Sequence record: PZ452602.1
From: a phage
DNA: 64,000 bases
Strand: one strand, 5' to 3'
A model generated the notes under the pieces. It was given only the letters and a program-made list of their open reading frames with translations. It had not been told where the DNA came from and made no database searches. Position numbers and translations under genes: made by a program. Shown here piece by piece: positions 1,713-62,836 of the stretch (the first letter of the stretch is position 1; each line of letters begins with the position of its first letter).

Positions 1713-1780
1713 TTTTATTCTCCAAGATGTTTAATTGCGGTACAGGTATATAATATCATATCCTGTACCAAAGTAAACAA

Positions 1781-2113: not shown

Positions 2114-2139
2114 TTTATTCTCCTTTGTTTGTGTAAGAT

Positions 2140-2170
2140 AATACTATCACAAAGGAGCTATACTGTAAAC
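2140..2170 (-). promoter_or_regulatory. T4-type early promoter (-35 GTTTAC, -10 TAGTAT-like)
   Basis: Minus-strand GTTTAC at 2165-2170, 17-nt spacer, A/T-rich -10; same architecture as about 17 other sites in the window. Confidence 0.5.
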
Positions 2171-2187: not shown

Positions 2188-2218
2188 GGAAAATAAAAAA
2201 GGACTCCCGAAGGAGTCC
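2188..2218 (-). terminator. Intrinsic terminator (GGACUCC-UUCG-GGAGUCC hairpin plus U-run)
   Basis: Perfect 7-bp stem with UUCG loop followed on the minus strand by UUUUUUAUUUU, just after the stop of the 2224-2400 ORF. Confidence 0.6.
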
Positions 2219-2223
2219 TCAAC

Positions 2224-5651: not shown

Positions 5652-5678
5652 TTCAATTTCCTCATTTGTTTTGGTAGA

Positions 5679-5711
5679 GCTATAATATCACAACTCTACC
5701 GTAAAGTAAAC
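5679..5711 (-). promoter_or_regulatory. T4-type early promoter
   Basis: Minus-strand GTTTAC (5706-5711), 17 nt, TATTAT; -10 flanked by inverted repeat GGTAGAG/CTCTACC. Confidence 0.5.
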
Positions 5712-6381: not shown

Positions 6382-7581
<1,200 letters not shown>

Positions 7582-8955: not shown

Positions 8956-8982
8956 AAAGTCCTCATGTTATGTCAGTAAGAC

Positions 8983-9013
8983 TACTGTAACACAACACGA
9001 GGGACTTGTAAAC
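8983..9013 (-). promoter_or_regulatory. T4-type early promoter upstream of alc
   Basis: Minus-strand GTTTAC at 9008-9013, 17-18 nt spacer, TACAGT -10. Confidence 0.4.
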
Positions 9014-18060: not shown

Positions 18061-18168
18061 TTTATTCTCCTTAGCAAGCTTTAATCAAAAGATATAAACA
18101 GACCAACATAACTGCTGCCATAATATAAGGTGCGAACATTTTCTTTTCTCCATTAGTTTTGATAGGGT

Positions 18169-18199
18169 AATAGTATCACACTACTACCCTTCTGTAAAC
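18169..18199 (-). promoter_or_regulatory. T4-type early promoter
   Basis: GTTTAC at 18194-18199 (minus), 17-18 nt spacer, TACTAT; inverted repeat around -10. Confidence 0.45.
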
Positions 18200-18891: not shown

Positions 18892-18923
18892 GTATAGTAC
18901 CATGGAAGGACAAGGATGTAAAC
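18892..18923 (-). promoter_or_regulatory. T4-type early promoter (PeSL-like cassette with terminator 18943-18973)
   Basis: Minus-strand AAAAATTTTTTT UP-like tract, GTTTAC (18918-18923), 17 nt, GTACTATAC. Confidence 0.55.
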
Positions 18924-18942
18924 CGTTTTGTGAAAAAAATTT

Positions 18943-18973
18943 TTGAAATAAAAAGGGGACCTCTAGGGTCCCC
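18943..18973 (-). terminator. Intrinsic terminator downstream of gene 32
   Basis: 7-bp GC stem GGGGACC/GGTCCCC followed by UUUUUAUUU on minus strand. Confidence 0.6.
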
Positions 18974-18995: not shown

Positions 18996-19904
18996 TTAAA
19001 GGTCATTCAAAAGGTCATCCAGGTCCGTGTCATCAGCACTAGATGAACTACCAGAGCTTGAGCTCATAAAATCATCTTCAGTTTTTGTATTGAAGTCATC
19101 AACATTGAATGCATCCAAATCATCAGCAACTTTATCAGCTTTCTTAGCAGCAGTTGCAGCGGCACCGCCCATCACAGCAGTTCCCATAACTTGACCGAAT
19201 TTAGTATTCAGTTCTTCAAACGATTTGAATTTATCTTTAGAAGTCATTTCAGAAAGGTCAACCATTTGTTCGAACAGTTCTTTCTGAAAAGATTCATCGT
19301 CAATGTTTGGAATCGCAGATTGATTCAGGAATTTAGATTCGTCGTAGTTACTAAATCCAGAAACTTGTTTAACTTTCAGTACAAAGTTAGCACCTTCCCA
19401 CGGACAAGTTACATCAACCGGAGTTTCACCCATTTCAACATCAACTGCAATCATTGCGTTGATTTTATCCCAGATTTTCTTACCGAAACGGTATTTAAAT
19501 ACTTTACCTTCATTTTCTGGAGCAGCTGGGTCTTTTACTACAAGAATGTTAGCCCAGTAAGAAGTTTTACGTTTAACAAGACTGTACTCTTTATTGTCAG
19601 TGTTGTACAAATCATTTTTACTGATGTACTGACATACTGGACAAGAATCGTAATCACCGTGGGTAGATGAGCAATTTTCGATATACCATTTACCGTTTTT
19701 CTTGAAACCGTGATTTACAAGAATTGCGAATGGTGCTTGTTCATCATTTTTAGACGGAAGAAAACGAATTACTGCTTGACCGTTACCCGCATTGTCGAGT
19801 TTCAGTTTCCACTCGCCTTTATCTTCAGAAGAAAAACCACCTTTATTTCCAGCCAATTTAGCCATTTGTGCAGCGAGTTCAGCAGTAGATTTACGTTTAA
19901 ACAT
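18996..19904 (-). CDS. 32: single-stranded DNA-binding protein gp32
   Basis: 301 aa; zinc site [14 protein letters not shown]; acidic C-terminus; sequence matches recalled T4 gp32. Confidence 0.93.
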
Positions 19905-22193: not shown

Positions 22194-22224
22194 TATTATA
22201 TACCATCCAAATCTTAAAGTAAAC
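22194..22224 (-). promoter_or_regulatory. T4-type early promoter for rnh, divergent from the gene 34 late promoter
   Basis: Minus-strand GTTTAC (22219-22224), spacer, TATAAT. Confidence 0.45.
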
Positions 22225-22269: not shown

Positions 22270-25200
22270 ATGGCCGAGATTAAAAGAAAGTTCAGAGCAG
22301 AAGACGGTCTGGACGCAGGTGGCGATAAAATAATCAACGTAGCTTTAGCTGATCGTACCGTAGGAACTGACGGTGTTAACGTTGATTACTTAATTCAAGA
22401 AAACACAGTTCAACAATATGATCCAACTCGTGGATATTTAAAAGATTTTGTAATCATTTATGATAACCGCTTTTGGGCTGCTATAAATGATATTCCAAAA
22501 CCGGCAGGAGCTTTTAATAGCGGGCGCTGGAGAGCATTACGTACAGACGCAAACTGGATTACGGTTTCATCTGGTTCATATCAATTAAAATCCGGTGAAG
22601 CTATTTCGGTTAATACTGCAACTGGAAATGACATCACGTTTACTTTACCATCTTCTCCAATTGATGGAGATACTATCGTTCTCCAAGATATTGGAGGAAA
22701 ACCTGGAGTTAACCAAGTTTTAATTGTAGCTCCAGTACAAAGTATTGTAAACTTTAGAGGTGAACAAGTACGTTCAGTACTAATGACTCATCCAAAGTCA
22801 CAGCTAGTTTTAATTTTTAGTAATCGTCTGTGGCAAATGTATGTTGCTGATTATAGTAGAGAAGCTATAGTTGTAACACCAGCGAATACTTATCAAGCGC
22901 AATCCAACGATTTTATCGTGCGTAGATTTACTTCTGCCGCACCGATAAATATTAAACTTCCAAGATTTGCTAATCATGGAGATATTATTAATTTCGTCGA
23001 TTTAGATAAACTAAATCCACTTTATCATACAATTGTTACTACATACGATGAAACGACTTCAGTACAAGAAGTTGGAACTCATTCCATTGAAGGCCGTACA
23101 TCGATTGACGGTTTCTTGATGTTTGATGATAATGAGAAATTGTGGAGATTGTTTGACGGGGATAGTAAAGCGCGTTTACGCATTATAACGACTAATTCTA
23201 ATATTCGTCCAAACGAAGAAGTTATGGTATTTGGTGCGAATAACGGAACAACCCAAACAATTGAGCTTCAGCTTCCAACTAATATTTCTGTTGGTGATAC
23301 TGTTAAAATTTCCATGAATTACATGAGAAAAGGACAAACAGTTAAAATCAAAGCTGCCGGTGAAGATAAAATTGCTTCTTCAGTTCAATTACTGCAATTC
23401 CCAAAACGCTCAGAATATCCGCCTGAAGCTGAATGGGTTACAGTCCAAGAATTAGTTTTTAACGGTGAAACTAATTATGTTCCAGTTTTACAACTTGCTT
23501 ATATTGAAGATTCTGATGGAAAATATTGGGTTGTACAGCAAAACGTTCCAACTGTCGAAAGAGTAGATTCTTTAAATGATTCTACTAGAGCAAGATTAGG
23601 CGTAATTGCTTTAGCTACACAAGCTCAAGCTAACGTCGATTTAGAAAATTCTCCACAAAAAGAATTAGCAATTACTCCAGAAACATTAGCTAACCGTACT
23701 GCTACTGAAACTCGTAGAGGTATTGCAAGAATAGCAACTACTGCTCAAGTGAATCAGAACACCACATTCTCTTTTGCTGATGACCTTATCATCACTCCTA
23801 AAAAGCTGAATGAAAGAACTGCTACAGAAACTCGCAGAGGTGTCGCAGAAATTGCTACGCAGCAAGAAACTAATACAGGTACTGATGATACTACAATCAT
23901 TACTCCTAAAAAGCTTCAAGCTCGTCAAGGTTCTGAATCATTATCCGGTATTGTAACTTTTGTATCTACTGCAAGTGCTACTCCAGCTTCTAGCCGTGAA
24001 TTAAATGGTACGAATGTTTATAATAAAAACACTAATAATTTAGTTGTTTCACCTAAAGCTTTGGATCAGTATAAAGCTACTCCAACACAGCAAGGTGCAG
24101 TAATTTTAGCAGTTGAAAGTGAAGTAATTGCTGGACAAAGTCAGCAAGGATGGGCAAATGCTGTTGTAACGCCAGAAACGTTACATAAAAAGACATCAAC
24201 TGATGGAAGAATTGGTTTAATTGAAATTGCTACGCAAAGTGAAGTTAATACAGGAACTGATTATACTCGTGCAGTCACTCCTAAAACTTTAAATGACCGT
24301 AGAGCAACTGAAAGTTTAAGTGGTATAGCTGAAATTGCTACACAAGTTGAATTCGACGCAGGCGTCGACGATACTCGTATCTCTACACCCTTAAAAATTA
24401 AAACCAGATTTAATAGTACTGATCGTACTTCTGTTGTTGCTCTATCTGGATTAGTTGAATCAGGAACTCTCTGGGACCATTATACACTTAATATTCTTGA
24501 AGCAAATGAGACACAGCGTGGTACACTTCGTGTAGCTACACAAGTTGAAGCTGCTGCAGGAACATTAGATAATGTTTTAATAACTCCTAAAAAGCTTTTA
24601 GGTACTAAATCTACCGAATCACAAGAAGGTGTTATTAAAGTTGCAACTCAGTCTGAAACTGTGACTGGAGCATCAGCAAATACTGCTGTATCTCCAAAAA
24701 ATTTAAAATGGATTGTGCAGAGTGAACCTACCTGGGCAGCTACTACTGCGGTAAGAGGTTTTGTTAAAACTTCATCTGGTTCAATTACGTTCGTTGGTAA
24801 TGATACAGTCGGTTCTACCCAAGATTTAGAACTGTATGAGAAAAATAGCTATGCAATATCACCATATGAATTAAACCGTGTATTAGCAAATTATTTACCG
24901 TTAAAAGCAAAAGCTGCAGATAGTAATTTATTGGATGGTCTAGATTCATCTCAGTTCATTCGTAGGGATATTGCACAGACGGTTAATGGTTCACTAACCT
25001 TAACCCAACAAACGAATCTGAGTGCCCCTCTTGTATCATCTAGTACTGCTGCGTTTGGTGGTTCAGTTTCGGCAAATAGTACATTAACTATTTCTAATAC
25101 TGGAACGGCAACTCGTCTGATTTTTGAGAAAGGACCTCAAACTGGAACTAACCCAGCGCAGACGATGACTATCAGAGTTTGGGGAAATCAGTTTGGTGGT

Positions 25201-26139
25201 GGGTCAGATACAACACGTTCTACTGTATTTGAAGTTGGTGATGAAACATCTAATCACTTTTATTCTCAACGTAATAAAGCTGGTAATATTACGTTTAGCA
25301 TTAATGGTACTGTGATGCCAATAAATGTTAACGCTTCCGGTTCATTGAATGCGAATGGCGTAGCAACATTTGGTAGTTCAGTTACAGCCAATGGTGAATT
25401 CATTAGCAAGTCTGCAAATGCTTTCAGAGCAATAAACGGTGATTATGGATTCTTTATCAGGAATGATGGCGGCAGCACATATTTTATGCTTACTGCATCT
25501 GGTGATCAGACCGGTGGATTTAATGGATTACGTCCATTATCAATTAATAATCAATCCGGTCAAGTCACAATTGGTGAAAGCTTAATCATTGCCAAAGGTG
25601 CTACTATAAATTCAGGCGGTTTAACTGTTAACTCGAGAATTCGTTCTCAGGGTACTAAAACATCTGATTTATATACCCGTGCGCCAACATCTGATACTGT
25701 AGGATTCTGGTCAATAGATATTAACGATTCAGCCACTTATAACCAGTTCCCAGGTTATTTTAAAATGGTTGAAAAAACTAACGAAGTGACTGGACTTCCG
25801 TACTTAGAACGTGGCGAAGAAGTTAAATCTCCTGGTACACTGACACAGTTTGGTAACACACTTGATTCGCTTTACCAAGATTGGATTACTTATCCAACGA
25901 CACCAGAAGCGCGTACCACTCGCTGGACACGTACATGGCAGAAAACCAAAAACTCTTGGTCAAGTTTTGTTCAGGTATTTGACGGAGGTAACCCTCCTCA
26001 ACCATCTGATATCGGTGCTTTACCATCTGATAATGCTACAATGGGGAATCTTACTATTCGTGATTTCTTGCGAATTGGTAATGTTCGCATTGTTCCTGAC
26101 CCAGTGAATAAAACGGTTAAATTTGAATGGGTTGAATAA
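22270..26139 (+). CDS. 34: long tail fibre proximal subunit gp34
   Basis: 1289 aa; repetitive fibrous motifs (ETRRGIARIAT, RRGVAEIAT, GLIEIATQ); RBS AGGAG. Confidence 0.93.
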   Translation: MAEIKRKFRAEDGLDAGGDKIINVALADRTVGTDGVNVDYLIQENTVQQYDPTRGYLKDFVIIYDNRFWAAINDIPKPAGAFNSGRWRALRTDANWITVSSGSYQLKSGEAISVNTATGNDITFTLPSSPIDGDTIVLQDIGGKPGVNQVLIVAPVQSIVNFRGEQVRSVLMTHPKSQLVLIFSNRLWQMYVADYSREAIVVTPANTYQAQSNDFIVRRFTSAAPINIKLPRFANHGDIINFVDLDKLNPLYHTIVTTYDETTSVQEVGTHSIEGRTSIDGFLMFDDNEKLWRLFDGDSKARLRIITTNSNIRPNEEVMVFGANNGTTQTIELQLPTNISVGDTVKISMNYMRKGQTVKIKAAGEDKIASSVQLLQFPKRSEYPPEAEWVTVQELVFNGETNYVPVLQLAYIEDSDGKYWVVQQNVPTVERVDSLNDSTRARLGVIALATQAQANVDLENSPQKELAITPETLANRTATETRRGIARIATTAQVNQNTTFSFADDLIITPKKLNERTATETRRGVAEIATQQETNTGTDDTTIITPKKLQARQGSESLSGIVTFVSTASATPASSRELNGTNVYNKNTNNLVVSPKALDQYKATPTQQGAVILAVESEVIAGQSQQGWANAVVTPETLHKKTSTDGRIGLIEIATQSEVNTGTDYTRAVTPKTLNDRRATESLSGIAEIATQVEFDAGVDDTRISTPLKIKTRFNSTDRTSVVALSGLVESGTLWDHYTLNILEANETQRGTLRVATQVEAAAGTLDNVLITPKKLLGTKSTESQEGVIKVATQSETVTGASANTAVSPKNLKWIVQSEPTWAATTAVRGFVKTSSGSITFVGNDTVGSTQDLELYEKNSYAISPYELNRVLANYLPLKAKAADSNLLDGLDSSQFIRRDIAQTVNGSLTLTQQTNLSAPLVSSSTAAFGGSVSANSTLTISNTGTATRLIFEKGPQTGTNPAQTMTIRVWGNQFGGGSDTTRSTVFEVGDETSNHFYSQRNKAGNITFSINGTVMPINVNASGSLNANGVATFGSSVTANGEFISKSANAFRAINGDYGFFIRNDGGSTYFMLTASGDQTGGFNGLRPLSINNQSGQVTIGESLIIAKGATINSGGLTVNSRIRSQGTKTSDLYTRAPTSDTVGFWSIDINDSATYNQFPGYFKMVEKTNEVTGLPYLERGEEVKSPGTLTQFGNTLDSLYQDWITYPTTPEARTTRWTRTWQKTKNSWSSFVQVFDGGNPPQPSDIGALPSDNATMGNLTIRDFLRIGNVRIVPDPVNKTVKFEWVE

Positions 26140-26147
26140 GAGGTATT

Positions 26148-27263
26148 ATGGAAAAATTTATGGCAGAGTTTGGACAAGGATATGTCCAAACGCCATTTTT
26201 ATCGGAAAGCAATTCAGTAAGATATAAAATAAGCATAGCGGGTTCTTGCCCGCTTTCTACAGCAGGACCATACGTTAAATTTCAGGATAATCCTGTCGGA
26301 AGTCAAACATTTAGCGCAGGACTTCATTTAAGAGTTTTTGACCCTTCCACCGGAGCATTAGTTGATAGTAAGTCATATGCTTTTTCGACTTCAAATGATA
26401 CAACATCTGCTGCTTTTGTTAGTTTCATGAATTCTTTGACGAATAATCGAATTGTTGCTATATTAACTAACGGAAAGGTTAATTTTCCTCCTGAAGTAGT
26501 ATCTTGGTTAAGAACCGCCGGAACGTCTGCTTTTCCATCTGATTCTATATTGTCAAGATTTGACGTATCATATGCTGCCTTTTATACTTCTTCTAAAAGA
26601 GCTATTGCATTAGAACATGTTAAACTGAGTAATAGAAAAAGCACAGATGATTATCAAACTATTTTAGATGTTGTATTTGACAGTTTAGAAGACGTTGGAG
26701 CTACCGGGTTTCCAAGAAGAACGTATGAAAGCGTTGAGCAATTCATGTCAGCGGTTGGTGGAACTAATAACGAAATTGCGCGTCTACCAACTTCAGCTAC
26801 TATAAGTAAATTATCTGATTATAATTTAATTCCTGGCGATGTTCTTTATCTTAAAGCTCAGTTATATGCTGATGCCGATTTACTTGCTCTTGGAACTACA
26901 AATATATCTATCCGTTTTTATAATGCATCAAATGGATATATTTCCTCGACACAAGCTGAATTTACCGGACAAGCTGGGTCATGGGAATTAAAGGAAGATT
27001 ATGTAGTTGTTCCAGAAAATGCAGTAGGATTTACGATATATGCACAAAGAACTGCTAAAGCTGGCCAAGGTGGCATGAGAAATTTAAGCTTTTCTGAAGT
27101 ATCAAGAAATGGCGGAATTTCAAAACCTGCTGAATTTGGCGTCAACGGTATTCGTGTTAATTATATCTGTGAATCTGCTTCACCTCCAGATATAATGGTA
27201 CTTCCTACACAAGCATCGTCTAAAACTGGTAAAGTGTTTGGACAAGAATTTAGAGAAGTTTAA
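26148..27263 (+). CDS. 35: long tail fibre hinge connector gp35
   Basis: 371 aa, immediately downstream of 34. Confidence 0.85.
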   Translation: MEKFMAEFGQGYVQTPFLSESNSVRYKISIAGSCPLSTAGPYVKFQDNPVGSQTFSAGLHLRVFDPSTGALVDSKSYAFSTSNDTTSAAFVSFMNSLTNNRIVAILTNGKVNFPPEVVSWLRTAGTSAFPSDSILSRFDVSYAAFYTSSKRAIALEHVKLSNRKSTDDYQTILDVVFDSLEDVGATGFPRRTYESVEQFMSAVGGTNNEIARLPTSATISKLSDYNLIPGDVLYLKAQLYADADLLALGTTNISIRFYNASNGYISSTQAEFTGQAGSWELKEDYVVVPENAVGFTIYAQRTAKAGQGGMRNLSFSEVSRNGGISKPAEFGVNGIRVNYICESASPPDIMVLPTQASSKTGKVFGQEFREV

Positions 27264-27267
27264 ATTG

Positions 27268-27292
27268 AGGGAGCCTTCGGGTTCCCTTTTTC
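27268..27292 (+). terminator. Hairpin (UUCG loop) plus U-tract after gene 35
   Basis: GGGAGCC-UUCG-GGUUCCC followed by UUUUUCUUU. Confidence 0.45.
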
Positions 27293-27294
27293 TT

Positions 27295-27302
27295 TATAAA
27301 TA
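27295..27302 (+). promoter_or_regulatory. late promoter TATAAATA for genes 36-37
   Basis: Exact TATAAATA 24 nt upstream of gene 36 ATG. Confidence 0.7.
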
Positions 27303-27325
27303 CTATTAAAATAAAGGGGCATACA

Positions 27326-27982
27326 ATGGCTGATTTAAAAGTAGGTTCAACAACCGGAGGCTCTGTCATTTGGCATCAAGGAAATTTTCCATTGAATCCA
27401 GCCGGTGACGATGTACTCTATAAATCATTTAAAATATATTCAGAATATAATAAACCACAAGCTGCTGATAACGATTTCGTTTCTAAAGCTAATGGCGGTA
27501 CTTATTTAAATAAAGTAATTTTTAATAAAGGAATGACTGTTCCTGGCGCAGGGTCAGGTGATAATGGTATTTTTGCTGGTCCTGGTGATAGTGCCACGTA
27601 TGATACTACAAATATGGATATTGTTTCGTGGTATGGTATTGGTTTTAAATCATCACAAGGAACAGCAGGTAGAACTGTAGTAATTAACACACGAAATGGA
27701 GATATTAGCTCAAAGGGCGTAATTGAAGCATCACAAATCCGTGTAACTTCGTTATCACCAGTAAATAATTATGACCTTACGCGGAAAGATTATGTTGATG
27801 GAGCAATAAATATTGTTACAGCAAACGCAAACTCTAGGGTATTACGCTCTGGAGACACTATGACAGGAAATTTAACTGCGCCAAACCTTTTTTCACAGAA
27901 TCCTGCATCTCAACCCTCGCATGTTCCACGATTTGACCAAATTGTTATTAAGGATTCTGTTCAAGATTTCGGCTATTATTAA
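27326..27982 (+). CDS. 36: long tail fibre distal connector gp36
   Basis: 218 aa; position between 35 and 37. Confidence 0.85.
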   Translation: MADLKVGSTTGGSVIWHQGNFPLNPAGDDVLYKSFKIYSEYNKPQAADNDFVSKANGGTYLNKVIFNKGMTVPGAGSGDNGIFAGPGDSATYDTTNMDIVSWYGIGFKSSQGTAGRTVVINTRNGDISSKGVIEASQIRVTSLSPVNNYDLTRKDYVDGAINIVTANANSRVLRSGDTMTGNLTAPNLFSQNPASQPSHVPRFDQIVIKDSVQDFGYY

Positions 27983-27990
27983 GAGGACTT

Positions 27991-30900
27991 ATGGCTACTT
28001 TAAAACAAATACAATTTAAAAGAAGCAAAACTGCAGGAGCACGTCCTGCCGCTTCAGTATTAGCCGAAGGTGAATTGGCTATAAACTTAAAAGACCGTGT
28101 ACTTTTTACTAAAGATGACCAAGGAAATATTATTGATCTGGGTTTTGCTAAAGGCGGTAGTATTGACGGGAATGTTATTCATACAGGCAATTATAACCAA
28201 ACTGGCGATTATACTTTAAATGGCGTCTTCACTCAGACTGGTAATTTTAATTTAACTGGTATTGCTCGAGTAACTCGCGATATTATTGCCGCTGGGCAGA
28301 TTATGACTGAAGGCGGAGAACTTATTACAAAAAGTTCAGGTACAGCGCATGTTCGTTTTTTCGATAACAATAGTCGCGAACGCGGAATCATTTATGCCCC
28401 GGCTAATGATGGTTTAACTACACAAGTACTTAATATCAGGGTTCAAGACTACGCCGCTGGTAGCGAAAGCACTTATGCATTTTCAGGCAGTGGACTATTT
28501 ACTTCACCTGAAGTATCAGCATGGAAATCTATTTCGTCTCCACAAATTCTAACCAACAAAGTCATTACTAATAATAAATCTACGGGTGATTATGACATCT
28601 ATTCGATGGCAGACAATGTTCCATTGTCTGAAAGCACTACTGCTATTAATCATCTTCGTGTCATGCGTAATGCCGTTGGTTCTGGTATTTTCCATGAAGT
28701 TAAAGATAATGATGGAATAACTTGGTATGCAGGTGATGGACTTGACACCTATCTTTGGTCATTTACTTGGAGCGGCGGAATTAAATCAAGTCACTCAATT
28801 TCTATTGGTTTAACACCTGGTAATAAAGATTATTCAATATTAGGATCGTCTAGTATCGCTTTAGGAGATAATGATACTGGATTTAAATGGCATCAAGATG
28901 GATATTATTTTAGCGTTAATAATGGAACAAAAACGTTTTTATTTAGTCCTAGCGAAACAACTAGCCTAAGAAAATTTGTAGCTGGATATTCTACTAACGG
29001 AACCGATTTAACTACTCCTCCAACTGAAAATTATGCTCTTGCTACTGTCGTGACATATCACGATAATAACGCGTTTGGAGATGGTCAGACTCTTTTAGGA
29101 TATTATCAAGGCGGTAACTATCATCATTATTTCCGCGGCAAGGGTACTACAAACATTAATACTCACGGCGGTTTGTTAGTTACTCCTGGTAATATTGACG
29201 TTATTGGTGGTTCTGTTAATATTGATGGTCGTAATAATTCTTCTACGCTGATGTTTAGAGGTAACACAACAGGTAGTAGTTCTGTGGATAACATGACAAT
29301 TTCTGTGTGGGGTAATACATTTATTAATCCTAGCGAAGGTAATCGCAAAAATGTCATGGAAATTTCTGATGCAACTAGCTGGATGAGTTATATTCAACGA
29401 ACAACTGCAGGTAAAGTCGAATCGGTTATAAATGGCACCCAGATTGTTAATGAAAACTTGACAGTAGTAAAAAATGCTACATTTGACGGTACAATCAGCG
29501 CAGCCGGTGAAATCGCGACAAATGCTGTAAATGGTCTTCGCATTTGGAATGCAGATTATGGAGCCATTTTTAGACGTTCAGAAGGCAGTCTTCATATTAT
29601 TCCAACTGCTTACGGTGAAGGTAAACACGGCGATATCGGTCCACTTCGCCCGTTTAGTATGGCTTTAGATACTGGTAAAGTTACTATTCCAGATTTACAA
29701 TCAAGTTACAATACGTTCGCAGCAAATGGCTATATTAAATTTGTTGGTCATGGAGCTGGGGCTGGAGGTTATGACATTCAATATGCTCAAGCGGCTCCTA
29801 TTTTCCAGGAAATTGATGATGATGCTGTAAGCAAATATTATCCTATTGTTAAACAGAAGTTTTTAAACAGTAAAGCTGTTTGGTCTTTAGGTACTGAAAT
29901 TAATTCAGGTACATTCGTTATTCATCATCTGAAAGAAGATGGATCACAGGGCCATACATCAAGATTTAATGCTGATGGTACAGTTAATTTCCCCGATAAC
30001 GTTCAGGTCGGCGGCGGTGAAGCTACTATTGCTCGCAATGGTAATATTTTCTCAGATATTTGGAAATCGTTTACTTCTGCGGGAGACACTACAAATATTC
30101 GTGATGCAATAGCTACTCGTGTTGCCAAAGAAGGCGATACGATGACCGGTAGGTTGACTTTATCTGCTGGAAATGATGCCCTTGTTTTAACTGCGGGCGC
30201 TGGCGCTTCATCGCACATCCGTAGTGATGTAGGTGGTACAAATAATTGGTATATAGGCAAAGGCGGCGGCGACAATGGTCTAGGTTTTTACAGTTACATT
30301 ACACAAGGCGGTGTATACATAACAAATAACGGCGAAATAGCGCTTTCTCCTCAAGGACAAGGAACATTTAATTTTAATAGAGACCGCCTTCATATAAACG
30401 GTACACAATGGACTGCGCACCAGGGTGGTGGCTGGGGAAACCAATGGAATCAAGAAGCTCCGATATTTATAGATTTTGGTAATGTTGGTAATGATAGTTA
30501 TTATCCTATTATTAAAGGAAAATCTGGTATTACTAATGAAGGATACATATCTGGCGTTGATTTTGGTATGCGACGCATTACTAATAACTGGGCGCAAGGT
30601 ATTATTCGTGTAGGTAACCAGGAAAATGGTTCTGATCCACAAGCTATCTATGAATTTCATCACAATGGAGTTCTGCATGTTCCTAACATGGTTAAAACTG
30701 GAGCAAGATTATCAGCTGGCGGTGGTGACCCGGTGTGGCAAGGCGCATGCGTTGTTATTGGTGATAATGATACTGGATTAGTTCATGGTGGTGATGGACG
30801 AATTAATATGGTTGCAAATGGAGTTCATATTGCTTCGTGGTCTTCATCTTATCATTCTCATCCAGGCCTTTGGGATTCAAACGGAGCTTTGTGGACAGAA

Positions 30901-31320
30901 GTTGGCAAAGCAATTATTTCTCATGGTCATTTAGTTCAGGCGAATGACAGCTATTCAACGTTTGTCCGTGATGTTTATGTCCGCTCTGATATTCGTGTTA
31001 AAAAAGACCTCGTTAAATTTGAAAATGCTTCTGAGAAGCTTTCTAAAATTAACGGTTACACTTATATGCAGAAGCGAGGCCTAGATGAAGAAGGCAATCA
31101 GAAATGGGAACCTAACGCCGGTTTGATAGCTCAAGAAGTTCAAGCTATTTTGCCTGAATTAGTTGAAGGTGACCCTGATGGCGAAGCTTTACTTCGTTTG
31201 AACTATAACGGTGTAATTGGTTTAAATACAGCTGCAATCAATGAGCATACTGCAGAAATTGCGGAACTTAAATCAGAAATTGAAGAACTTAAAGCATTAG
31301 TTAAATCATTGTTAAAATAA
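27991..31320 (+). CDS. 37: long tail fibre distal subunit gp37 with C-terminal intramolecular-chaperone-like domain
   Basis: 1109 aa; C-terminal about 110 aa (DIRVKKDL...[10 protein letters not shown]...[15 protein letters not shown]...coiled coil) resembles auto-cleaved chaperone domains of other phage fibres. Confidence 0.9.
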
Positions 31321-31324
31321 TAAG

Positions 31325-31340
31325 AGGGGCTTCGGCCCCT
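31325..31340 (+). other. Stable RNA hairpin AGGGGC-UUCG-GCCCCU between genes 37 and 38
   Basis: Perfect stem with UUCG tetraloop, not followed by a U-tract; lies just 5' of the gene 38 RBS. Confidence 0.5.
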
Positions 31341-31351
31341 TGGAGGTTTAT

Positions 31352-32128
31352 ATGGCAGTAACAGGACCGTGGGTAGGATCGTCTGCAGTAGTTAATACAG
31401 GACAAAATTGGATGTCCAGCGCGGCCCAACGATTAAGAATGGGTACTCCATTTTGGATGAGTAATATGATAGGTCGATCTGTTGAAGTAATTCATACACT
31501 TGGAGCAGATCATAACTTCAATGGTCAATGGTTCCGAGATAGATGTTTTGAGGCAGGTAGTGCACCTATAGTGTTTAATATCACTGGAGATTTAGTATCA
31601 TATTCTAAAGATGTTCCTTTATTCTTCATGTATGGAGATACACCGAATGAATATGTTCAGTTGAATATACACGGCGTAACGATGTATGGACGTGGCGGTA
31701 ATGGCGGTAGCAATAGTCCTGGTTCAGCTGGAGGTCATTGTATTCAAAACGATATTGGTGGGAGACTAAGAATTAATAATGGTGGAGCTATTGCTGGAGG
31801 TGGCGGCGGTGGCGGCGGCGGATATTATTCTCCTTTTTCACAAATGAGATTGACTTTTGGAGGTGGCGGCGGGCGTCCGTTTGGCGCACCGGGCGGATCT
31901 ATTGATATGCAATCAGGAGCAACTGCTGGTACTATTTCTGCGCCTGGCGCAGGGTCTGTGAACGGTATCTATAGCGGCGGTGGCGGTGGCGAAGTTGGCT
32001 CCGCAGGAGGTAGATGTAATATTCGTGGTCAAGGATCTGAATACGATGGCGGAGCTGCTGGTTATGCCGTCATAGGGTCTACACCGACATGGCAAAACGT
32101 TGGAGCAATATATGGTCCAAGAGTATAA
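31352..32128 (+). CDS. 38: T2-type receptor-recognising adhesin gp38 with glycine-rich motifs
   Basis: Protein from [11 protein letters not shown] with poly-Gly islands (GGGGGGGGG, GGGGG, GGGGG); RBS GGAGG 5 nt upstream of ATG at 31352; the track start at 31340 is a TTG. Confidence 0.85.
31796..31822 (+). repeat. GGN triplet repeat encoding a 9-residue glycine run in gp38
   Basis: ggaggtggcggcggtggcggcggcgga; GC-rich in an AT-rich genome. Confidence 0.7.
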
Positions 32129-32158
32129 TTTGAATAAATATCCTTAAAAGGAGGGTCT

Positions 32159-32815
32159 ATGGCAGCACCTAGAATATCATTTTCGCCCTCTGATATTCTG
32201 TTGGGTGTTCTAGATCGCTTGTTCAAAGATAACGCTACCGGGAAAGTTCTTGCTTCCCGGGTAGCTGTCGTAATTCTTTTATTTATGATGGCGATTGTTT
32301 GGTATAGGGGAGATAGTTTCTTTGAGTACTATAAGCAATCAAAGTATGAAACATACAGTGAAATTATTGAAAAGGAAAGAAATGCACGCTTTGAATCTGT
32401 CGCCCTGGAACAACTCCAGATAGTTCATATATCATCTGAGGCAGACTTTAGTGCGGTGTATTCTTTCCGCCCTAAAAACTTAAACTATTTTGTTGATATT
32501 ATAGCATACGAAGGAAGATTACCTTCAACAATAACTGAAAAATCACTTGGAGGATATCCTGTTGATAAAACTATGGATGAATATACAGTTCATTTAAATG
32601 GACGTCATTATTATTCCAACTCAAAATTTGCTTTTTTACCAACTAAAAAGCCTACTCCCGAAATAAACTACATGTACAGTTGTCCATATTTTAATTTGGA
32701 TAATATCTATGCTGGAACGATAACCATGTACTGGTATAGAAATGATCATATAAGTAATGACCGCCTTGAATCAATATGTGCTCAGGCGGCCAGAATATTA
32801 GGAAGGGCTAAATAA
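32159..32815 (+). CDS. t: holin t
   Basis: 218 aa; sequence MAAPRISFSPSDIL... with a single N-terminal TM matches recalled T4 holin T. Confidence 0.9.
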   Translation: MAAPRISFSPSDILLGVLDRLFKDNATGKVLASRVAVVILLFMMAIVWYRGDSFFEYYKQSKYETYSEIIEKERNARFESVALEQLQIVHISSEADFSAVYSFRPKNLNYFVDIIAYEGRLPSTITEKSLGGYPVDKTMDEYTVHLNGRHYYSNSKFAFLPTKKPTPEINYMYSCPYFNLDNIYAGTITMYWYRNDHISNDRLESICAQAARILGRAK

Positions 32816-33088: not shown

Positions 33089-33249
33089 TAACTATACCAC
33101 TCAATTAGTTGACTTTGTTATAATATCATCAGACGCTTGATTTGTAAACTGGTCTGTGTTATTTTCTTCAAAAATTTTTTCTACGAATTCCTTGAACGAC
33201 TCGCGTTCCTGAGCTGCATTATGCTCGATTACCTTTTCAAGATTATGAC

Positions 33250-35582: not shown

Positions 35583-35614
35583 GTATAGTACCACAGTATG
35601 CTTTGGTTGTAAAC
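35583..35614 (-). promoter_or_regulatory. T4-type early promoter for motA (PeSL-like cassette with terminator 35631-35663)
   Basis: Minus-strand GTTTAC (35609-35614), 17 nt, GTACTATAC; leader ends in GGAG RBS. Confidence 0.55.
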
Positions 35615-35630: not shown

Positions 35631-35663
35631 TTTAAAATAAAAAGGGAGAGCCTCGGCTCTCCC
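35631..35663 (-). terminator. Intrinsic terminator
   Basis: GGGAGAGCC/GGCTCTCCC stem followed by U-tract on minus strand. Confidence 0.6.
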
Positions 35664-35668
35664 TAAAA

Positions 35669-38590: not shown

Positions 38591-38825
38591 AGTAAACGTT
38601 TAATACATCAATCATTAAAACGATTGGGAATATACTCAAAACTATTAGTATTATAACTACATTCCATATAGCTTTAACAATCTTTTTCATTTTCTGTTCC
38701 TCCGTAGTTGATAGGGTAATAGTACCACGGAAGAACAGTCTTGTAAACAACTTTTTTAAAAATATTCGTAATAAATGTGAATACCAACTACTACCGCTGA
38801 AACCTGTGCAACCCACCACGCACAA
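38577..38825 (-). CDS. small membrane protein (true product probably the C-terminal 37 aa from MKKIVKAIW)
   Basis: Hydrophobic stretch VVIILIVLSIFPIVLMI; promoter 38717-38748 lies inside the long form. Confidence 0.35.
   Translation of the reverse strand: MCVVGCTGFSGSSWYSHLLRIFLKKLFTRLFFRGTITLSTTEEQKMKKIVKAIWNVVIILIVLSIFPIVLMIDVLNVYFGFM
38717..38748 (-). promoter_or_regulatory. T4-type early promoter
   Basis: GTTTAC (38743-38748), 17 nt, GTACTAT; leader CTATCAACTACGGAGGA shared with promoter at 39223-39254. Confidence 0.5.
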
Positions 38826-38933: not shown

Positions 38934-39197
38934 TCATAGTTCAATCTCAGCGATTTTCATTTCATTACTATTAATAGCCGCTTTAAGACTATCTGAAAGA
39001 ATTACATTCCAATGGTCATTCATATGACCATTAACTAAACGTGTAATTTCTTCAGGAGTTGAAAAATAAGGCGTATCAGACTCCCAATGCGATAGTCCCA
39101 AGCGAGTATAAATCATACCTTCATCATCGCTAGAATATTCAACTGACACAAACTCATCAGTTATTTTATGTTTAGCGTAATAAAATTTAAATTTCAT
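38934..39197 (-). CDS. hypothetical protein (87 aa)
   Basis: Track ORF with GGAGGAG RBS and its own early promoter. Confidence 0.5.
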   Translation of the reverse strand: MKFKFYYAKHKITDEFVSVEYSSDDEGMIYTRLGLSHWESDTPYFSTPEEITRLVNGHMNDHWNVILSDSLKAAINSNEMKIAEIEL

Positions 39198-39222
39198 TTT
39201 TACTCCTCCGTAGTTGATAAGG

Positions 39223-39254
39223 TAATAGTACCACAGTCCTTGTGGTATGTAAAC
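39223..39254 (-). promoter_or_regulatory. T4-type early promoter
   Basis: GTTTAC (39249-39254), 17 nt, GTACTAT; near-identical to 38717-38748. Confidence 0.5.
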
Positions 39255-43718: not shown

Positions 43719-43748
43719 ATTATACCACATCCTTGTGGTAAAGTAAAC
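43719..43748 (-). promoter_or_regulatory. T4-type early promoter (rII operon)
   Basis: GTTTAC (43743-43748) overlapping gene 39 stop, 17 nt, GTATAAT. Confidence 0.55.
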
Positions 43749-45565: not shown

Positions 45566-45634
45566 CACTTATCCTCGTTTGGTTTCGGGAATATTATACT
45601 CCGGTAATCATAAAGCTAAAGGCCCGAAGGCCTT

Positions 45635-47107: not shown

Positions 47108-47389
47108 TTAATTAAACATTGGAGCGATACGTTTCAGAAGAGTAGCAGCACCTTTAGCGAATTTTACATCATGAAAAACAGTTTCTTCTTCTGTAACAAC
47201 TCGAACTTTAATATTTTCACAATCCCAATTTTTACGAACAATCTTCAAAAGCTGCAGTAAATCTTTACATTCAGCAATATCGATAACACATCCACGAGAA
47301 TCTTCCATTATCGCACGATAACCGTAAGCCATACCATAATCGTTAAAAGATTGCTCGATGATAATTAAGTTTTCCATTTTATTCTCCAA
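47108..47389 (-). CDS. hypothetical protein (93 aa)
   Basis: Track ORF. Confidence 0.5.
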   Translation of the reverse strand: MENKMENLIIIEQSFNDYGMAYGYRAIMEDSRGCVIDIAECKDLLQLLKIVRKNWDCENIKVRVVTEEETVFHDVKFAKGAATLLKRIAPMFN

Positions 47390-47473
47390 GTTGTTTTCTG
47401 TATCAGTAGTTGATATTGATATAGTACCATAATCAACTACTGATGTATATAGTTTTATGAAAAAATTTAAACT

Positions 47474-47965: not shown

Positions 47966-48009
47966 AATTATCTCTCACTTGTTAAAAAGATTTTATACTC
48001 CGCAGGACC

Positions 48010-48039
48010 ATTATACTCTGGTCCCAAGAGTTTGTAAAC
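48010..48039 (-). promoter_or_regulatory. T4-type early promoter
   Basis: GTTTAC (48034-48039), 17 nt, GTATAAT. Confidence 0.55.
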
Positions 48040-48549: not shown

Positions 48550-49092
48550 TTAGTCTAAGGTAATAAAGCCTTTTAGTTCGGCATGAGATTTGCGGAACAT
48601 TACTTGATGCCCGCCAACGATAACTTGGTCATCTGGTACTTCGTATACAGCAAGATAAAATCCTTTCGAAGCTAATTCTTCACGCTCTTCTCGTGTGAAC
48701 CATCTCATCATATCATATTCGCTAGCGAAAGCAAAATGATAAAGAGCTATAAACCATCCGGGAATATAATGATCTACGCCTACATATTCTTCTTTCTCAA
48801 AGTTAGTATTAATTGCTATATTAGCATTTTTAACTAATAATTTGTCTTCGTGCGGAAGAGGAATTCTTTTATTATCATTACTATGATGCATAAAATTAGG
48901 TCTGTCATAACCTACGTGTAATAACCACTCTTCGCTCCATGAATCTATTATACTCCTGTATGGCGTTATTTGAACACAAAGATCTCGACGTATTGTTATA
49001 GCATCTTCATAATTAAGAATACTAAACGATGATTCAACTCGATAAATTTTCATTTTATTATCCTCAGTAGCTATGGTGTTATAATACCACAA
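48550..49092 (-). CDS. hypothetical protein (180 aa)
   Basis: Track ORF. Confidence 0.5.
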   Translation of the reverse strand: MWYYNTIATEDNKMKIYRVESSFSILNYEDAITIRRDLCVQITPYRSIIDSWSEEWLLHVGYDRPNFMHHSNDNKRIPLPHEDKLLVKNANIAINTNFEKEEYVGVDHYIPGWFIALYHFAFASEYDMMRWFTREEREELASKGFYLAVYEVPDDQVIVGGHQVMFRKSHAELKGFITLD

Positions 49093-49110
49093 CTAACCGA
49101 GGAAGTAAAC
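49081..49110 (-). promoter_or_regulatory. T4-type early promoter
   Basis: GTTTAC (49105-49110), 17 nt, GTATTAT. Confidence 0.5.
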
Positions 49111-52909: not shown

Positions 52910-52946
52910 ATTTTTCTCACATCTTACGGACGGTTAACTACTTATA

Positions 52947-52975
52947 CTATAACATTTTTACTTTAACTTGTAAAC
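52947..52975 (-). promoter_or_regulatory. T4-type early promoter
   Basis: GTTTAC (52970-52975), 17 nt, TATAGT. Confidence 0.45.
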
Positions 52976-54255: not shown

Positions 54256-54271
54256 GATAGCCTCCGTATAC

Positions 54272-54301
54272 TTCAGAAGCTATCATATCATCGTTAGAAA
54301 G
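54272..54301 (-). promoter_or_regulatory. T4-type early promoter for modB-modA
   Basis: GTTTAC (54296-54301), spacer, TATGAT. Confidence 0.45.
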
Positions 54302-54322
54302 GAAAGTAAACAACTTTTTAAA

Positions 54323-56372: not shown

Positions 56373-56403
56373 AAGATAATTCTATTATACCATACTCATT
56401 TTG
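56373..56403 (-). promoter_or_regulatory. T4-type early promoter
   Basis: GTTTAC (56398-56403), spacer, GTATAAT. Confidence 0.5.
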
Positions 56404-56453
56404 GAAAGTAAACCATTTAAATGAAAAAAGGACTCCCGAAGGAGTCCTTGAAT

Positions 56454-58701: not shown

Positions 58702-58724
58702 TATATCATCCTCAGCAATTTATT

Positions 58725-58755
58725 TTATAATACCATAACAAGCTGAGAAAGTAAA
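58725..58755 (-). promoter_or_regulatory. T4-type early promoter
   Basis: GTTTAC (58750-58755), spacer, GTATTAT. Confidence 0.5.
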
Positions 58756-58791
58756 CAAATTTATGATAAATATTAATTTAAAGGAGGACAT

Positions 58792-60875: not shown

Positions 60876-60906
60876 TATAGTATCTCAATTTCCAACAAAA
60901 GTAAAC
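60876..60906 (-). promoter_or_regulatory. T4-type early promoter for sp
   Basis: GTTTAC (60901-60906), spacer, TACTAT. Confidence 0.5.
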
Positions 60907-61377: not shown

Positions 61378-61408
61378 CTACTATACCATAGTCTTGTCAG
61401 TTTGTAAA
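61378..61408 (-). promoter_or_regulatory. T4-type early promoter for dmd
   Basis: GTTTAC (61403-61408), spacer, TATAGT; -10 flanked by inverted repeat CAAGACTAC/GTAGTCTTG. Confidence 0.5.
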
Positions 61409-62836
61409 CTAAAATTTTAATTCATTTGCCAAAGCATCTAACTGAGCTCGAGTGGATTCATTTCTTTGATAGCGATTCTGTTCAGCCTGAATCTGTTGTG
61501 AACCTGCTACTTCACTCACTTCGGTTGGAGTAGAATCTTGTTCAATTTCTACCCATTTTTGATTTCCTTTTTGAACACCCATCAAAAACTTATTCCACTT
61601 ATTCTTATCACCATATCGTGATTTGATTTGCTTAATAAGTTGTTGTTCAGCAGCTGCTAACTCCTCGGTTTCAATGACCGCAAGCATAAAATCAGCTGTT
61701 GCTGGAAGACCAGCAGATTCTGCAATATCGCTCATGTTAACATCGGAAGAGTCCCAAGCTTGTTTACCGACCTGTGCTGCAGTCCAAAGAACAGTTTCGG
61801 TTTCAACAGCCAGAGCACGCAATTCCTCTGCGATAGCTTTAACAGTTGTGTAACTATTTTCTGAATAAACTCTAATGCGGCAAGATTTACAAATACCTAG
61901 ATAGTCGACAATAATGATTGTTGGAACAAAATTCTTTTTGAGCTTTAATTCATTTAAAAGTGATCGAAATGTATTAGCGTCTGCTCCACCAGTAGGATAT
62001 TGCTTAACGATTAAACGACCAAGGGTAGATTTCTCACGCCATTTTTCCATTTTTCCTTTATACTCGGCGTAAGAAATATGTCCATCATCAATATCGTCAA
62101 GAGAAACATCGAGCATATTAGCATCAATACGTTTAGCGCAGACTTCTTCTGCCATTTCCATGGAGATATAAAGAACGTTATGACCAAGCTGCAAATAATC
62201 TGCTGCTAATGAACACAATCCTAATGATTTACCAACGTTAACGCCAGCCATTAAAACGTTCAGTGTTCCAGTTTCAGCTCCGCCTTTCGTAATTTTGTTT
62301 AGAATTCTGAGTTTAAATGGAACTTTACGAGCTTTATTCATATAAGATAGCCAGCGTGCTTCGTAGTCATCCATCCAATCATGACCAACGTAGCTATCAA
62401 ATGAAATTGATAATGCTTGACGCATGATGTCAGGAATAGCACCAACATCCGGCATTTTCTTATTTCGTTTTTCCGGAGGAAGCTCAGCATTAGTTTGAAT
62501 TTCGATTATTTTAGACGTAGCATTAAACATCGCCCTTTGCTGAACATATTTTTCTGTTTCTTTTACTAACCAGCTGTGGTCTTCCGGAGAATCAGCTAGT
62601 TTTGAAATAAGTGTTTTTACACCAGAATATTCTGTTTCAGTAAATGAACTATTTTCTAATGCAACATTTAACGCATTAATAGATGGAACGCTATGGTACT
62701 CGTTAACATGAGATTTAATTAATTTGAACGTATTTTTAGCTGGACCACTTTCAAAATATTCTGAATCCATATATGGCCAAACTTTTGAAAAATAAGCTTG
62801 ATCAAATATGAGATGAGAAAGAATAATTTCTACCAC
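61409..62836 (-). CDS. 41: replicative DNA helicase gp41 (DnaB-like)
   Basis: 475 aa; Walker A GVNVGKS; apparent GTG start with GGAG RBS. Confidence 0.92.
   Translation of the reverse strand: MVEIILSHLIFDQAYFSKVWPYMDSEYFESGPAKNTFKLIKSHVNEYHSVPSINALNVALENSSFTETEYSGVKTLISKLADSPEDHSWLVKETEKYVQQRAMFNATSKIIEIQTNAELPPEKRNKKMPDVGAIPDIMRQALSISFDSYVGHDWMDDYEARWLSYMNKARKVPFKLRILNKITKGGAETGTLNVLMAGVNVGKSLGLCSLAADYLQLGHNVLYISMEMAEEVCAKRIDANMLDVSLDDIDDGHISYAEYKGKMEKWREKSTLGRLIVKQYPTGGADANTFRSLLNELKLKKNFVPTIIIVDYLGICKSCRIRVYSENSYTTVKAIAEELRALAVETETVLWTAAQVGKQAWDSSDVNMSDIAESAGLPATADFMLAVIETEELAAAEQQLIKQIKSRYGDKNKWNKFLMGVQKGNQKWVEIEQDSTPTEVSEVAGSQQIQAEQNRYQRNESTRAQLDALANELKF

Follow-up and report, generated by a model that had tools for sequence, protein, structure and literature searches.

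Positions 18892-18973 of a 64,000-nucleotide stretch of phage DNA (sequence record PZ452602.1; the window, below, is this whole stretch at its full length) carry a terminator-like hairpin, an A/T tract and a promoter-like element on the minus strand, and similar arrangements recur between genes across the window. The site raises the question of what this repeated element is, whether its copies could serve as substrates for recombination among accessory genes, and what the inverted repeats that surround some of the -10 regions might do. A first, sequence-only reading had regarded the sites as early promoters combined with stem-loops, and its claims are taken up below where evidence bears on them.

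On sequence evidence, the source phage is a T-even phage (Tequatrovirus): megablast of the window gave 95-98% identity to Shigella phage Sf25, Escherichia phage slur02, Yersinia phage PYps5T and others. In blastn comparison with T4, the window is collinear and in the same orientation, running from T4 128,140 across the 168,903/1 junction to 23,195. Absent from it, relative to T4, are the td and nrdB introns, segG, segF, mobE and the gene 60/mobA insertion, and about nine small ORFs are found beyond the T4 set. The base composition is 35% G+C, and an Rfam scan of the whole window detected no family at its gathering score. A related-locus search with Alc in viral contigs yielded only 6 loci, all near-identical and therefore useless for covariation, so eight genomes, annotated or unannotated, were used as relatives for comparison instead. 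The following genes serve as landmarks:

18996-19904, minus strand: gene 32
22270-32815, plus strand: tail-fibre genes 34-37
41302-43479, minus strand: rIIA

The flagged site between gene 32 and frd.3

The flagged site contains, in the direction of transcription, the following elements:

18955..18973, minus strand: intrinsic terminator of gene 32, hairpin GGGGACC-CUAGA-GGUCCCC followed by a U-run; same stem and loop in T4
18945-18924, minus strand: A/T tract between the gene 32 terminator and GTTTAC
18894..18923, minus strand: early promoter of the frd.3 homologue, GTTTAC-N18-TACTAT with a TGG extended -10; T4 orthologue at 146875
18850, minus strand: ATG of the frd.3 homologue

The hairpin (18973-18955) is found directly 3' of the gene 32 stop codon, where the gp32 C-terminus reads ...DDLLNDL. 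In the promoter, GTTTAC (18923-18918) and TACTAT (18899-18894) are separated by an 18-nt spacer with TGG at its end. Hairpin, A/T tract, -35, -10 and leader are all the same in the T4 orthologue, but the spacer differs: between nearly identical flanks, it matches the T4 spacer at only 8/18 positions, and its sequence is similar to that of the spacer at 38748. (Sites are named here by the upper coordinate of the -35/-10 unit on the minus strand, 18923 standing for 18894..18923.) Existing annotation describes the arrangement in similar terms. In the record of Yersinia phage fPS-2, the orthologue of the flagged site is annotated as a 'terminator' and a 'predicted early promoter', and a paralogous copy in T4 is annotated as terminator, -35 and -10 of 'early promoter 54.4'. 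When the 96-nt flagged cassette was used as a blastn query, 2709 places were found in 553 phage records, about 5 per genome.

Early promoters of the T4 type on one strand

A scan for the generic TTGACA-N16-18-TATAAT consensus showed no enrichment over shuffles in the window (74 matches vs 77.5, 76 vs 75.6 and 76 vs 73.3). Because a generic sigma-70 consensus is uninformative in DNA of 35% G+C, a specific motif and a PWM were used instead. Exact GTTTAC-N16-19-TATAAT occurs 4 times (0.12 expected), and GTTTAC-N18-TAnnnT has 20 minus-strand matches and no plus-strand match, where first-order Markov simulations average 0.38 matches and reach 4 at most. The PWM, built from the GTTTAC-N18-TAnnnT sites and applied with a promoter cut-off of 20 or more, found 21 minus-strand sites scoring 20-46; everything else scored 11 or less, and the plus strand held none. 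These 21 comprise 19 N18 sites, the N17 site 1778, and 47450, whose -35 is degenerate (ATATAC). The motif search proposed in the sequence-only reading, run here within the window, has thus returned 20 matches where 0.38 were expected, and its count of at least 18 intergenic minus-strand sites with GTTTAC and a TATAAT-like hexamer stands, the PWM raising it to 21 with none on the other strand. One of the 20 regex matches, at 22752, was rejected as a promoter and is probably the one or so match to be expected by chance: it is antisense in gene 34 and has neither the A-tract nor TGn. It is also found in T4, at 151291, where it is kept because it is coding sequence, and it does not coincide with oriG (T4 152947).

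The sites are built alike. GTTTAC(A/T) is exact at 20 of the 21, ATATAC at 47450 being the exception; 18 nt follow GTTTAC (equivalent to N17 after TTTACW) at 20 sites and 17 nt at one; and the extended -10 TGn is present at 18/21. Positions -40 to -44 are A-rich across the sites, the columns from -1 to -9, counted from the G of GTTTAC, are informative for A/T, and the UP-like tract has a mean pairwise identity of 0.40 compared with 0.25-0.27 further upstream. Between sites, the positions contacted by RNA polymerase are the most similar and the spacer is the least. All 21 are upstream of an ORF with a Shine-Dalgarno sequence (SD) and ATG on the same strand, with predicted 5' UTRs of 19-38 nt; the downstream genes include dmd, sp, mrh.2, modB, srd, motB.2, motB, rIIA.1, motA, asiA, rnh, frd.3, alc, 30.8 and 30.7. 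Besides the flagged site, the promoters, all on the minus strand, are:

61380..61409, minus: early promoter upstream of dmd; T4 orthologue 20612
60877..60906, minus: early promoter upstream of sp (spackle); T4 orthologue 20109
58727..58756, minus: early promoter upstream of a 186-aa ORF that T2 has and T4 lacks
56384..56413, minus: early promoter upstream of mrh.2; T4 orthologue 15288
54282..54311, minus: early promoter upstream of modB
52946..52975, minus: early promoter upstream of srd, no hairpin; T4 orthologue 11851
49081..49110, minus: early promoter upstream of motB.2; T4 orthologue 8218
48010..48039, minus: early promoter upstream of motB; T4 orthologue 7215
47421..47450, minus: motA-type cassette with degenerate -35 (ATATAC), upstream of an 89-aa ORF
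43719..43748, minus: early promoter upstream of rIIA.1; T4 orthologue 2458
39225..39254, minus: early promoter upstream of an 87-aa ORF missing in T4
38719..38748, minus: early promoter upstream of a small ndd.4-like ORF; T4 orthologue 166807
35585..35614, minus: early promoter upstream of motA; T4 orthologue 163673
33120..33149, minus: early promoter upstream of asiA, inside the asiA.1 ORF; T4 orthologue 161211
22195..22224, minus: early promoter upstream of rnh (T4 Pe148.6); promoter and the flanks shown identical to T4 at 150763
18170..18199, minus: early promoter between frd.2 and frd.1; T4 orthologue 146143
8984..9013, minus: early promoter upstream of alc; T4 orthologue 136336
5682..5711, minus: early promoter, orthologue of T4 Pe133295, before an extra 176-aa ORF
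2141..2170, minus: early promoter upstream of 30.8; T4 orthologue 130310
1750..1778, minus: early promoter upstream of 30.7, N17 by this count; T4 orthologue 129918

The early promoters of T4 (Pe) are reportedly the subject of work by Liebig & Rueger in 1989, Wilkens & Rueger in 1994/1996 and Miller et al. in 2003. For 19 sites of the window, the same motif is found at the orthologous T4 position (2458, 7215, 8218, 11851, 13186, 15288, 20109, 20612, 129918, 130310, 133331, 136336, 146143, 146875, 150763, 161211, 163673, 166807 and 167086). The T4 GenBank record calls the orthologue of 5711 'early promoter Pe133295', and for Pe148.6, the rnh promoter, primer extension detected activity 1 min after infection (PMC6024815). 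The published early consensus of T4 has GTTTAC at -36 to -31, an A-rich stretch at -40 to -44 and a G/T-rich one before the -10 (PMC1524935), and a review by Hinton describes T4 early promoters as UP/-35/TGn/-10 promoters and early genes as read from overlapping transcripts (PMC2988021). The window sites resemble T4 Pe in consensus (A-rich UP tract, GTTTAC, TGn, TAnnnT), in downstream genes and, at the 19 sites, in position; nothing essential differs, although some spacers and leaders do, and some sites drive ORFs that have been lost from T4. Middle (MotA-box) promoters are rejected as an identification, since GTTTAC stands at the -35 and a TGCTT box at -30 is lacking.

Because T4 orthology, annotation and the published consensus converge, the sites can be regarded as the early promoters of this phage, and the early sigma-70-type interpretation given in the sequence-only reading is upheld by the 19 orthologous sites, Pe133295, Pe148.6 and the fPS-2 annotation. 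Very probably, then, the 21 sites are early promoters (Pe) of a T-even phage, four of them joined to an upstream terminator as the composite called PeSL. At the level of sequence, their identity as promoters is established by orthology to mapped or annotated T4 promoters together with the statistics; promoter activity in this phage and termination efficiency are what we infer. Host sigma-70 RNA polymerase, still unmodified just after the DNA has been injected, would recognise very strong composite promoters, in each of which an A/T-rich UP-like tract precedes a -35 GTTTAC(A/T), and TGn extends a -10 TAnnnT (TTTACW-N17-hexamer in the sigma-70 convention). All share the orientation of the early genes (minus strand), and each would start a leader of 19-38 nt that ends in a GGAG/GAGG Shine-Dalgarno sequence. 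The site at 47450, with its degenerate -35, may be a weak promoter.

Upstream terminators and the PeSL composite

In addition to the gene 32 terminator, strong hairpins followed by U-runs are found upstream of these promoters at:

2199..2220, minus strand: UUCG-loop terminator upstream of the 30.8 promoter, with the same 18-nt core and U6 as 56428-56449
35643..35664, minus strand: terminator hairpin GGGAGAGC-CGAG-GCUCUCCC, then a U-run, upstream of the motA promoter
56428..56449, minus strand: UUCG-loop terminator after soc, GGACUCC-UUCG-GGAGUCC followed by U6

A strong upstream terminator is thus present at only 4 of the 21 sites (2199-2220, 18955-18973, 35643-35664 and 56428-56449), and the other 17 have no strong upstream hairpin. 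The loop is UUCG in two of the four (2199-2220 and 56428-56449), CUAGA at 18955-18973 and CGAG at 35643-35664. Adjacent GC-rich UUCG hairpin terminators had been proposed with three examples; a terminator does adjoin the promoter in all three, but the UUCG loop is found only at 2140-2218. CTTCGG is enriched in the window (32 occurrences vs 13 expected). CUUCGG tetraloop hairpins of T4 are said to have been described by Tuerk et al. in 1988. Two terminators of the window, with their C(UUCG)G loops, are of this kind, whereas most of the promoters have no such hairpin alongside.

At the four sites, the intrinsic terminator of the upstream unit lies 25-35 nt ahead of the -35, giving a 'terminator + early promoter' cassette that corresponds to PeSL. 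This composite was defined in RB49/phi1 (Arbiol et al. 2010, PMC2839356) and was extended to PST/T4 and nt-1/KVP40, with TTTACW-N17-TAYWAT as the PST/T4 consensus (Comeau et al. 2014, PMC4122927). An example of PeSL exchange in the latter study is the ndd.4-ndd.6 region (ndd.4/ndd.5; PMC4122927), in which sites 38748 and 39254 of the window are located. The order of stem-loop, A/T tract, early promoter, SD and ATG is the same, and TTTACW-N17-TAYWAT fits; unlike in PeSL as published, a strong upstream stem-loop stands at only 4/21 sites, and the indels that separate this window from T4 show no significant association with the cassettes. The PeSL-like reading is supported and agrees with the one published for T4/PST in 2014 (PMC4122927), and the early promoter set and the PeSL idea are already known.

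Similarity among cassettes and module exchange

When whole cassettes were compared, the median pairwise local score was 16, which reflects the promoter consensus only, and 15 of the 21 sites share nothing but functional promoter positions. The six others (35614, 18923, 47450, 39254, 38748 and 18199) form a sub-family whose members are alike over about 100-130 bp, with local scores of 31-54. Similarity beyond that of independent sigma70 promoters, as had been suggested for the sites in general, is therefore a property of this sub-family and not of most pairs. A near-identical leader had been described as often present; CTATCAACTACGGAGGA is found at two sites only (exactly at 38698-38714 and with 1 mismatch at 39204-39220), and its core ATCAACTAC in 4 leaders.

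Between the window and T4, 12 indels or replacements were counted, homing endonucleases and introns excluded, and 4 of them adjoin a cassette (5711, 39254, 47450 and 58756). Since about one in five gene junctions carries a cassette, some 2.5 of the 12 would be expected there at random gene junctions, and the excess is not significant. The proposed match between cassette boundaries and gene-content breakpoints is accordingly seen at 4 of 12 differences from T4 but does not exceed chance, and on this window alone the cassettes do not emerge as preferred breakpoints. Three of the four cassette-adjacent differences (5711, 47450 and 58756) are plain ORF deletions in T4, and two leave an ORF remnant. 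The 176-aa ORF after 5711 has been removed from ATG to ATG, and the 186-aa ORF after 58756 was lost along with its promoter. The 89-aa ORF after 47450 is reduced in T4 to an 11-codon remnant behind an identical promoter core and leader. The difference at 39254 is more telling: of the 87-aa ORF, T4 retains only the final 8 codons, and these are joined at ATGAAAAT to a leader of a different, motA type, which is also found in another Tequatrovirus.

This leader swap, together with the replaced spacer of the flagged site, points to module exchange within the sub-family, and exchange of spacer plus leader is evident from the sequences compared. The six cassettes would thus trade spacer and leader modules by recombination. 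As recombination substrates, the cassettes are weakly supported in this window, by the mosaic spacers and leaders of the six-member sub-family but not by the cassette-adjacent indels (4 of 12 vs about 2.5 expected). For the mini-circles that recombination between PeSL copies would give, these mosaics are indirect support only. A related motif at the T-even internal-protein (IP) loci, proposed to mediate shuffling, was reportedly described by Repoila et al. in EMBO J in 1994, a work cited in PMC2839356. It is similar in that a T4 early promoter and an AT-rich stem-loop make up its repeat of about 70 bp; it differs in being described for IP loci only, which lie outside this window.

Two other accounts of the repeated sites can be weighed against their reading as an early promoter family. 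Matches to sigma-70-like sequences could arise by chance in AT-rich DNA with no real family behind them, as the unenriched generic consensus would allow. This has a negligible probability given the 20 matches to GTTTAC-N18-TAnnnT where 0.38 were expected, the strand bias of 21 to 0, the bimodal PWM scores, the position of every site ahead of an ORF and the conservation of sites in T4. A promoter-carrying small mobile element (MITE-like or a homing target) that spread by transposition, rather than by promoter selection, would account for the 100-130 bp shared in the sub-family, the roughly 5 blastn-detectable copies per genome and the mosaic spacers and leaders. Yet terminal inverted repeats and target-site duplications were not found, the sites occupy the same orthologous positions in T4 (the T2 data covering the T4 1-25 kb segment only), 15/21 are alike only at functional promoter positions, and the sites are most alike at RNA polymerase contacts and least alike in the spacer, all of which makes such an element very unlikely. 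A family of early promoters of which six members exchange modules is the reading retained here.

Predicted RNA hairpins spanning the -10 region

The sequence-only reading had placed the -10 inside inverted repeats at 5679-5711, 18169-18199 and 61378-61408. All three cases are confirmed, and the feature is much more general than was claimed. Hairpins in which the SD is strongly paired, as predicted, are found at six sites:

58709-58749, minus strand, site 58756: spacer CUCAGC pairs with GCUGAG of the SD
54253-54287, minus strand, site 54311 (modB): -10 UAUGAU and the next bases pair with SD and AUG
49061-49103, minus strand, site 49110 (motB.2): spacer CCUC pairs with SD GAGG
38694-38738, minus strand, site 38748: 15-bp hairpin, spacer pairs with ACGGAGGAACAG of the SD
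8957-9007, minus strand, site 9013 (alc): spacer CCCUC pairs with SD GAGGAC
2120-2157, minus strand, site 2170 (30.8): spacer CUCCUUUGUG pairs with SD AAGGAG

At six further sites, the 3' arm stops short of the SD:

61367-61402, minus strand, site 61409: hairpin encloses the -10
47997-48031, minus strand, site 48039: hairpin encloses the -10
47402-47444, minus strand, site 47450: hairpin
18161-18192, minus strand, site 18199: hairpin includes the -10
5673-5700, minus strand, site 5711: hairpin encloses the -10
1738-1770, minus strand, site 1778: hairpin encloses the -10

Folding covered the sense-strand sequence that begins at the first base of the spacer and ends 45 nt beyond the -10. Over the 21 sites, the mean z was -2.4, with 11 of them below -2, whereas random minus-strand windows had a mean z of -0.36 and the initiation regions of 61 genes without an early promoter one of -0.04 (sites vs controls, Mann-Whitney p ~1e-4). 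At least 5 bp are formed between sequence upstream of the predicted +1 and the transcribed leader at 15/21 sites. By MFE, 10 of the 21 have their SD paired with bases that lie upstream of the predicted +1 and belong mostly to the promoter spacer. The upstream region of each promoter also fits its own gene: duplex energy was -7.7 kcal/mol with the SD window of the same site and -5.6 kcal/mol with those of other sites (permutation p < 2e-4). The unpaired probability from SD to AUG in long vs short RNA was noisy, and MFE pair bookkeeping and duplex energies were used. Similar folds are present outside the window, as 13 further early promoters elsewhere in a related genome had a mean z of -2.17, with 6/13 below -2.

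Comparison among relatives gives some indication that the pairing is kept. At the motB.2 orthologue of RB69, a stem of different sequence is found, TTCTCCTCTGGTT...AACCAGAGGAGAA (z -8). The modB promoter hairpin is kept in four genera, with z of -3.1 to -6.1 in RB69, two Jiaodavirus and one Karamvirus. RNAalifold of seven modB promoters placed the helix mainly on invariant columns, with a shifted register in Jiaodavirus and 3 pairs showing double changes, and formal covariation is weak because there are only these three. Among stem substitutions between the window, T4 and T2, 12 keep pairing, all of them one-sided wobble changes valid on the sense strand only, and 4 break it, each located either at the end of a helix or within a weak outer one; this count excludes 18923, where the spacer has been replaced wholesale, and the exclusion was made after seeing the data.

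The repeats around the -10 might also act as DNA, in the form of cruciforms or palindromic protein sites involved, for example, in early-promoter shut-off, rather than as RNA hairpins. The arms are symmetrical around the -10 at 5711, 1778, 61409 and 18199, and the mechanism of early-promoter shut-off has been stated to be unknown (PMC3014915; PMC2988021). However, the arm sequences differ from site to site, so a common protein-binding site is not indicated, and folding of the sense strand yields more stable structures than folding of the antisense strand (MFE -14.0 vs -9.8, p = 5e-5; z -2.33 vs -1.52, p = 0.02). G-U pairs make up 15% of all pairs, the pair-keeping changes in the strong stems are of the sense-strand wobble type given above, and the 3' arm coincides with the SD or AUG at 6-10 sites. 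A role at the DNA level is thus considered improbable, though less so than either of the alternatives to the promoter family, and the repeats are treated below as RNA hairpins.

Possible functions of the hairpins and implications

As a tentative proposal that is more likely to be wrong than right, about half of T-even early promoters could be built inside an RNA hairpin, with the SD or AUG in its 3' arm at 6-10 of the 21 sites and the read-through RNA masked. The 5' arm would be the variable 18-nt spacer, sometimes the -10 itself, and the 3' arm the start of the leader. Such a hairpin would form in transcripts that start at early or middle promoters further upstream and continue across the site, and at 6-10 genes it would hide the ribosome-binding site (RBS) of this read-through RNA. 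The transcript of the promoter itself would start inside the hairpin and so stay open and translatable. The predicted spacer-SD pairing at these 6-10 sites suggests that translation would proceed only from the gene's own early transcript, and masking would tie the translation of modB, motB.2, alc, 30.8 and the ndd.4-like ORF to the 2-3 min in which early promoters fire. At 61409, 5711, 1778, 18199, 48039 and 47450, where the 3' arm falls short of the SD, the hairpin may stabilise or delimit the upstream RNA.

Promoter-embedded hairpins that mask the RBS have been demonstrated experimentally for T4 e, soc, 49 and I-TevI, with a late promoter (PMC3014915), and a 2010 review says of the genes known to be so regulated that every one is a late gene (PMC2988022). 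The similarity lies in a 5' arm in or upstream of the promoter, a 3' arm over the SD or AUG, and a long read-through RNA that is masked while the promoter's own transcript is without the 5' arm (here a prediction). The difference is that late promoters and late genes are concerned there, and early sigma-70 promoters and early genes here. By analogy, the early hairpins would work like the e/soc/49/I-TevI family, of which, as that family is defined, they are not members. Hairpins of early promoters that mask the RBS are possibly under-described, and the older T4 literature might hold a prior description.

For annotation, the analysis provides 21 early transcription starts and 4 terminators and flags accessory ORFs that have a promoter of their own. 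If the proposed masking is true, the rapid shut-off of early protein synthesis, which is unexplained, would have a simple cis-acting layer added to it. The masking would also account both for the hypervariability of promoter spacers and for their co-variation with the leaders, and it would limit how promoter cassettes can be swapped between genes.

Terminators, promoter-like motifs and the Pe133295 loop

Two UUCG terminators share an 18-nt core followed by six U residues (GGACTCC-TTCG-GGAGTCC-TTTTTT), and this core is identical despite a separation of 54 kb. Over the whole window, CTTCGG is enriched, with 32 occurrences vs 13 expected.

2199-2220, minus strand, UUCG terminator
56428-56449, minus strand, UUCG terminator with the same core

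A GTTTAC-N18-TACAAT motif at 22723-22752 (minus strand) lies antisense within the tail-fibre gene 34 and is kept in T4 at 151291. Both the A-tract and the TGn element of early promoters are missing there, and the motif is probably a chance match. The motif does not lie at oriG (T4 152947).

In the T4 GenBank record, a misc_feature at 133300-133313 is described as the inverted complement of the sequence reported before, correcting early promoter Pe133295. This segment corresponds to window positions 5682-5695, where inverted-repeat arms (GGTAGAG and CTCTACC) surround the -10 of the Pe133295 orthologue. The 14 nt of the misc_feature are exactly the hairpin loop, ttgtgaTATTATag, between these arms, and the loop was therefore flipped in the earlier T4 sequence, either as a hairpin sequencing artefact or through a true inversion.

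Gene content relative to T4

The T4-specific split of genes 39/60 with its 50-nt translational bypass is lacking in the window, where gp39 is undivided, and 60.1 and mobA of that T4 region are missing.

43748-45568, minus strand, gp39, one 606-aa ORF

The td and nrdB introns, segG, segF and mobE are likewise all missing from the window. The distal tail-fibre region at 28157-32134 (plus strand), comprising the C-terminal part of gp37 and the next ORFs, has no T4 match by blastn, consistent with a different adhesin module, for example of T2 type.

Small ORFs also lie behind early promoters.

38934-39197, minus strand, 87-aa ORF, missing in T4
47108-47389, minus strand, 89-aa ORF downstream of the degenerate promoter cassette 47450
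18071-18139, minus strand, 22-codon ORF with a good SD, downstream of promoter 18199, between frd.2 and frd.1

Only the final 8 codons of the 87-aa ORF (MKIAEIEL*) remain in T4, joined at ATGAAAAT to a leader resembling that of the motA promoter. The promoter core and leader of cassette 47450 are unaltered in T4, but all that is left of the 89-aa ORF there is a stretch of 11 codons that carries no annotation (T4 6518-6556). For the 22-codon ORF, T4 sequence is conserved through the first codons, and the T4 annotation has no gene there.

Apparent exchange around promoters and leaders

In the early promoter of the frd.3 homologue (18894-18923, minus strand), the 18-nt spacer is identical to that of T4 at only 8 of 18 positions, between nearly identical flanks, and resembles the spacer of the promoter at 38748. 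Promoter spacers look like exchangeable modules. In Tequatrovirus BCH953P2 (OZ035785.1), a promoter core and leader at 26987 (minus strand) are nearly identical to those of the alc promoter, with the same spacer and hairpin but a -10 of TATAGT vs TACAGT, and a different ORF starts directly after the SD of the alc-like leader. This site is a further example of gene-content change immediately downstream of a conserved promoter and leader.
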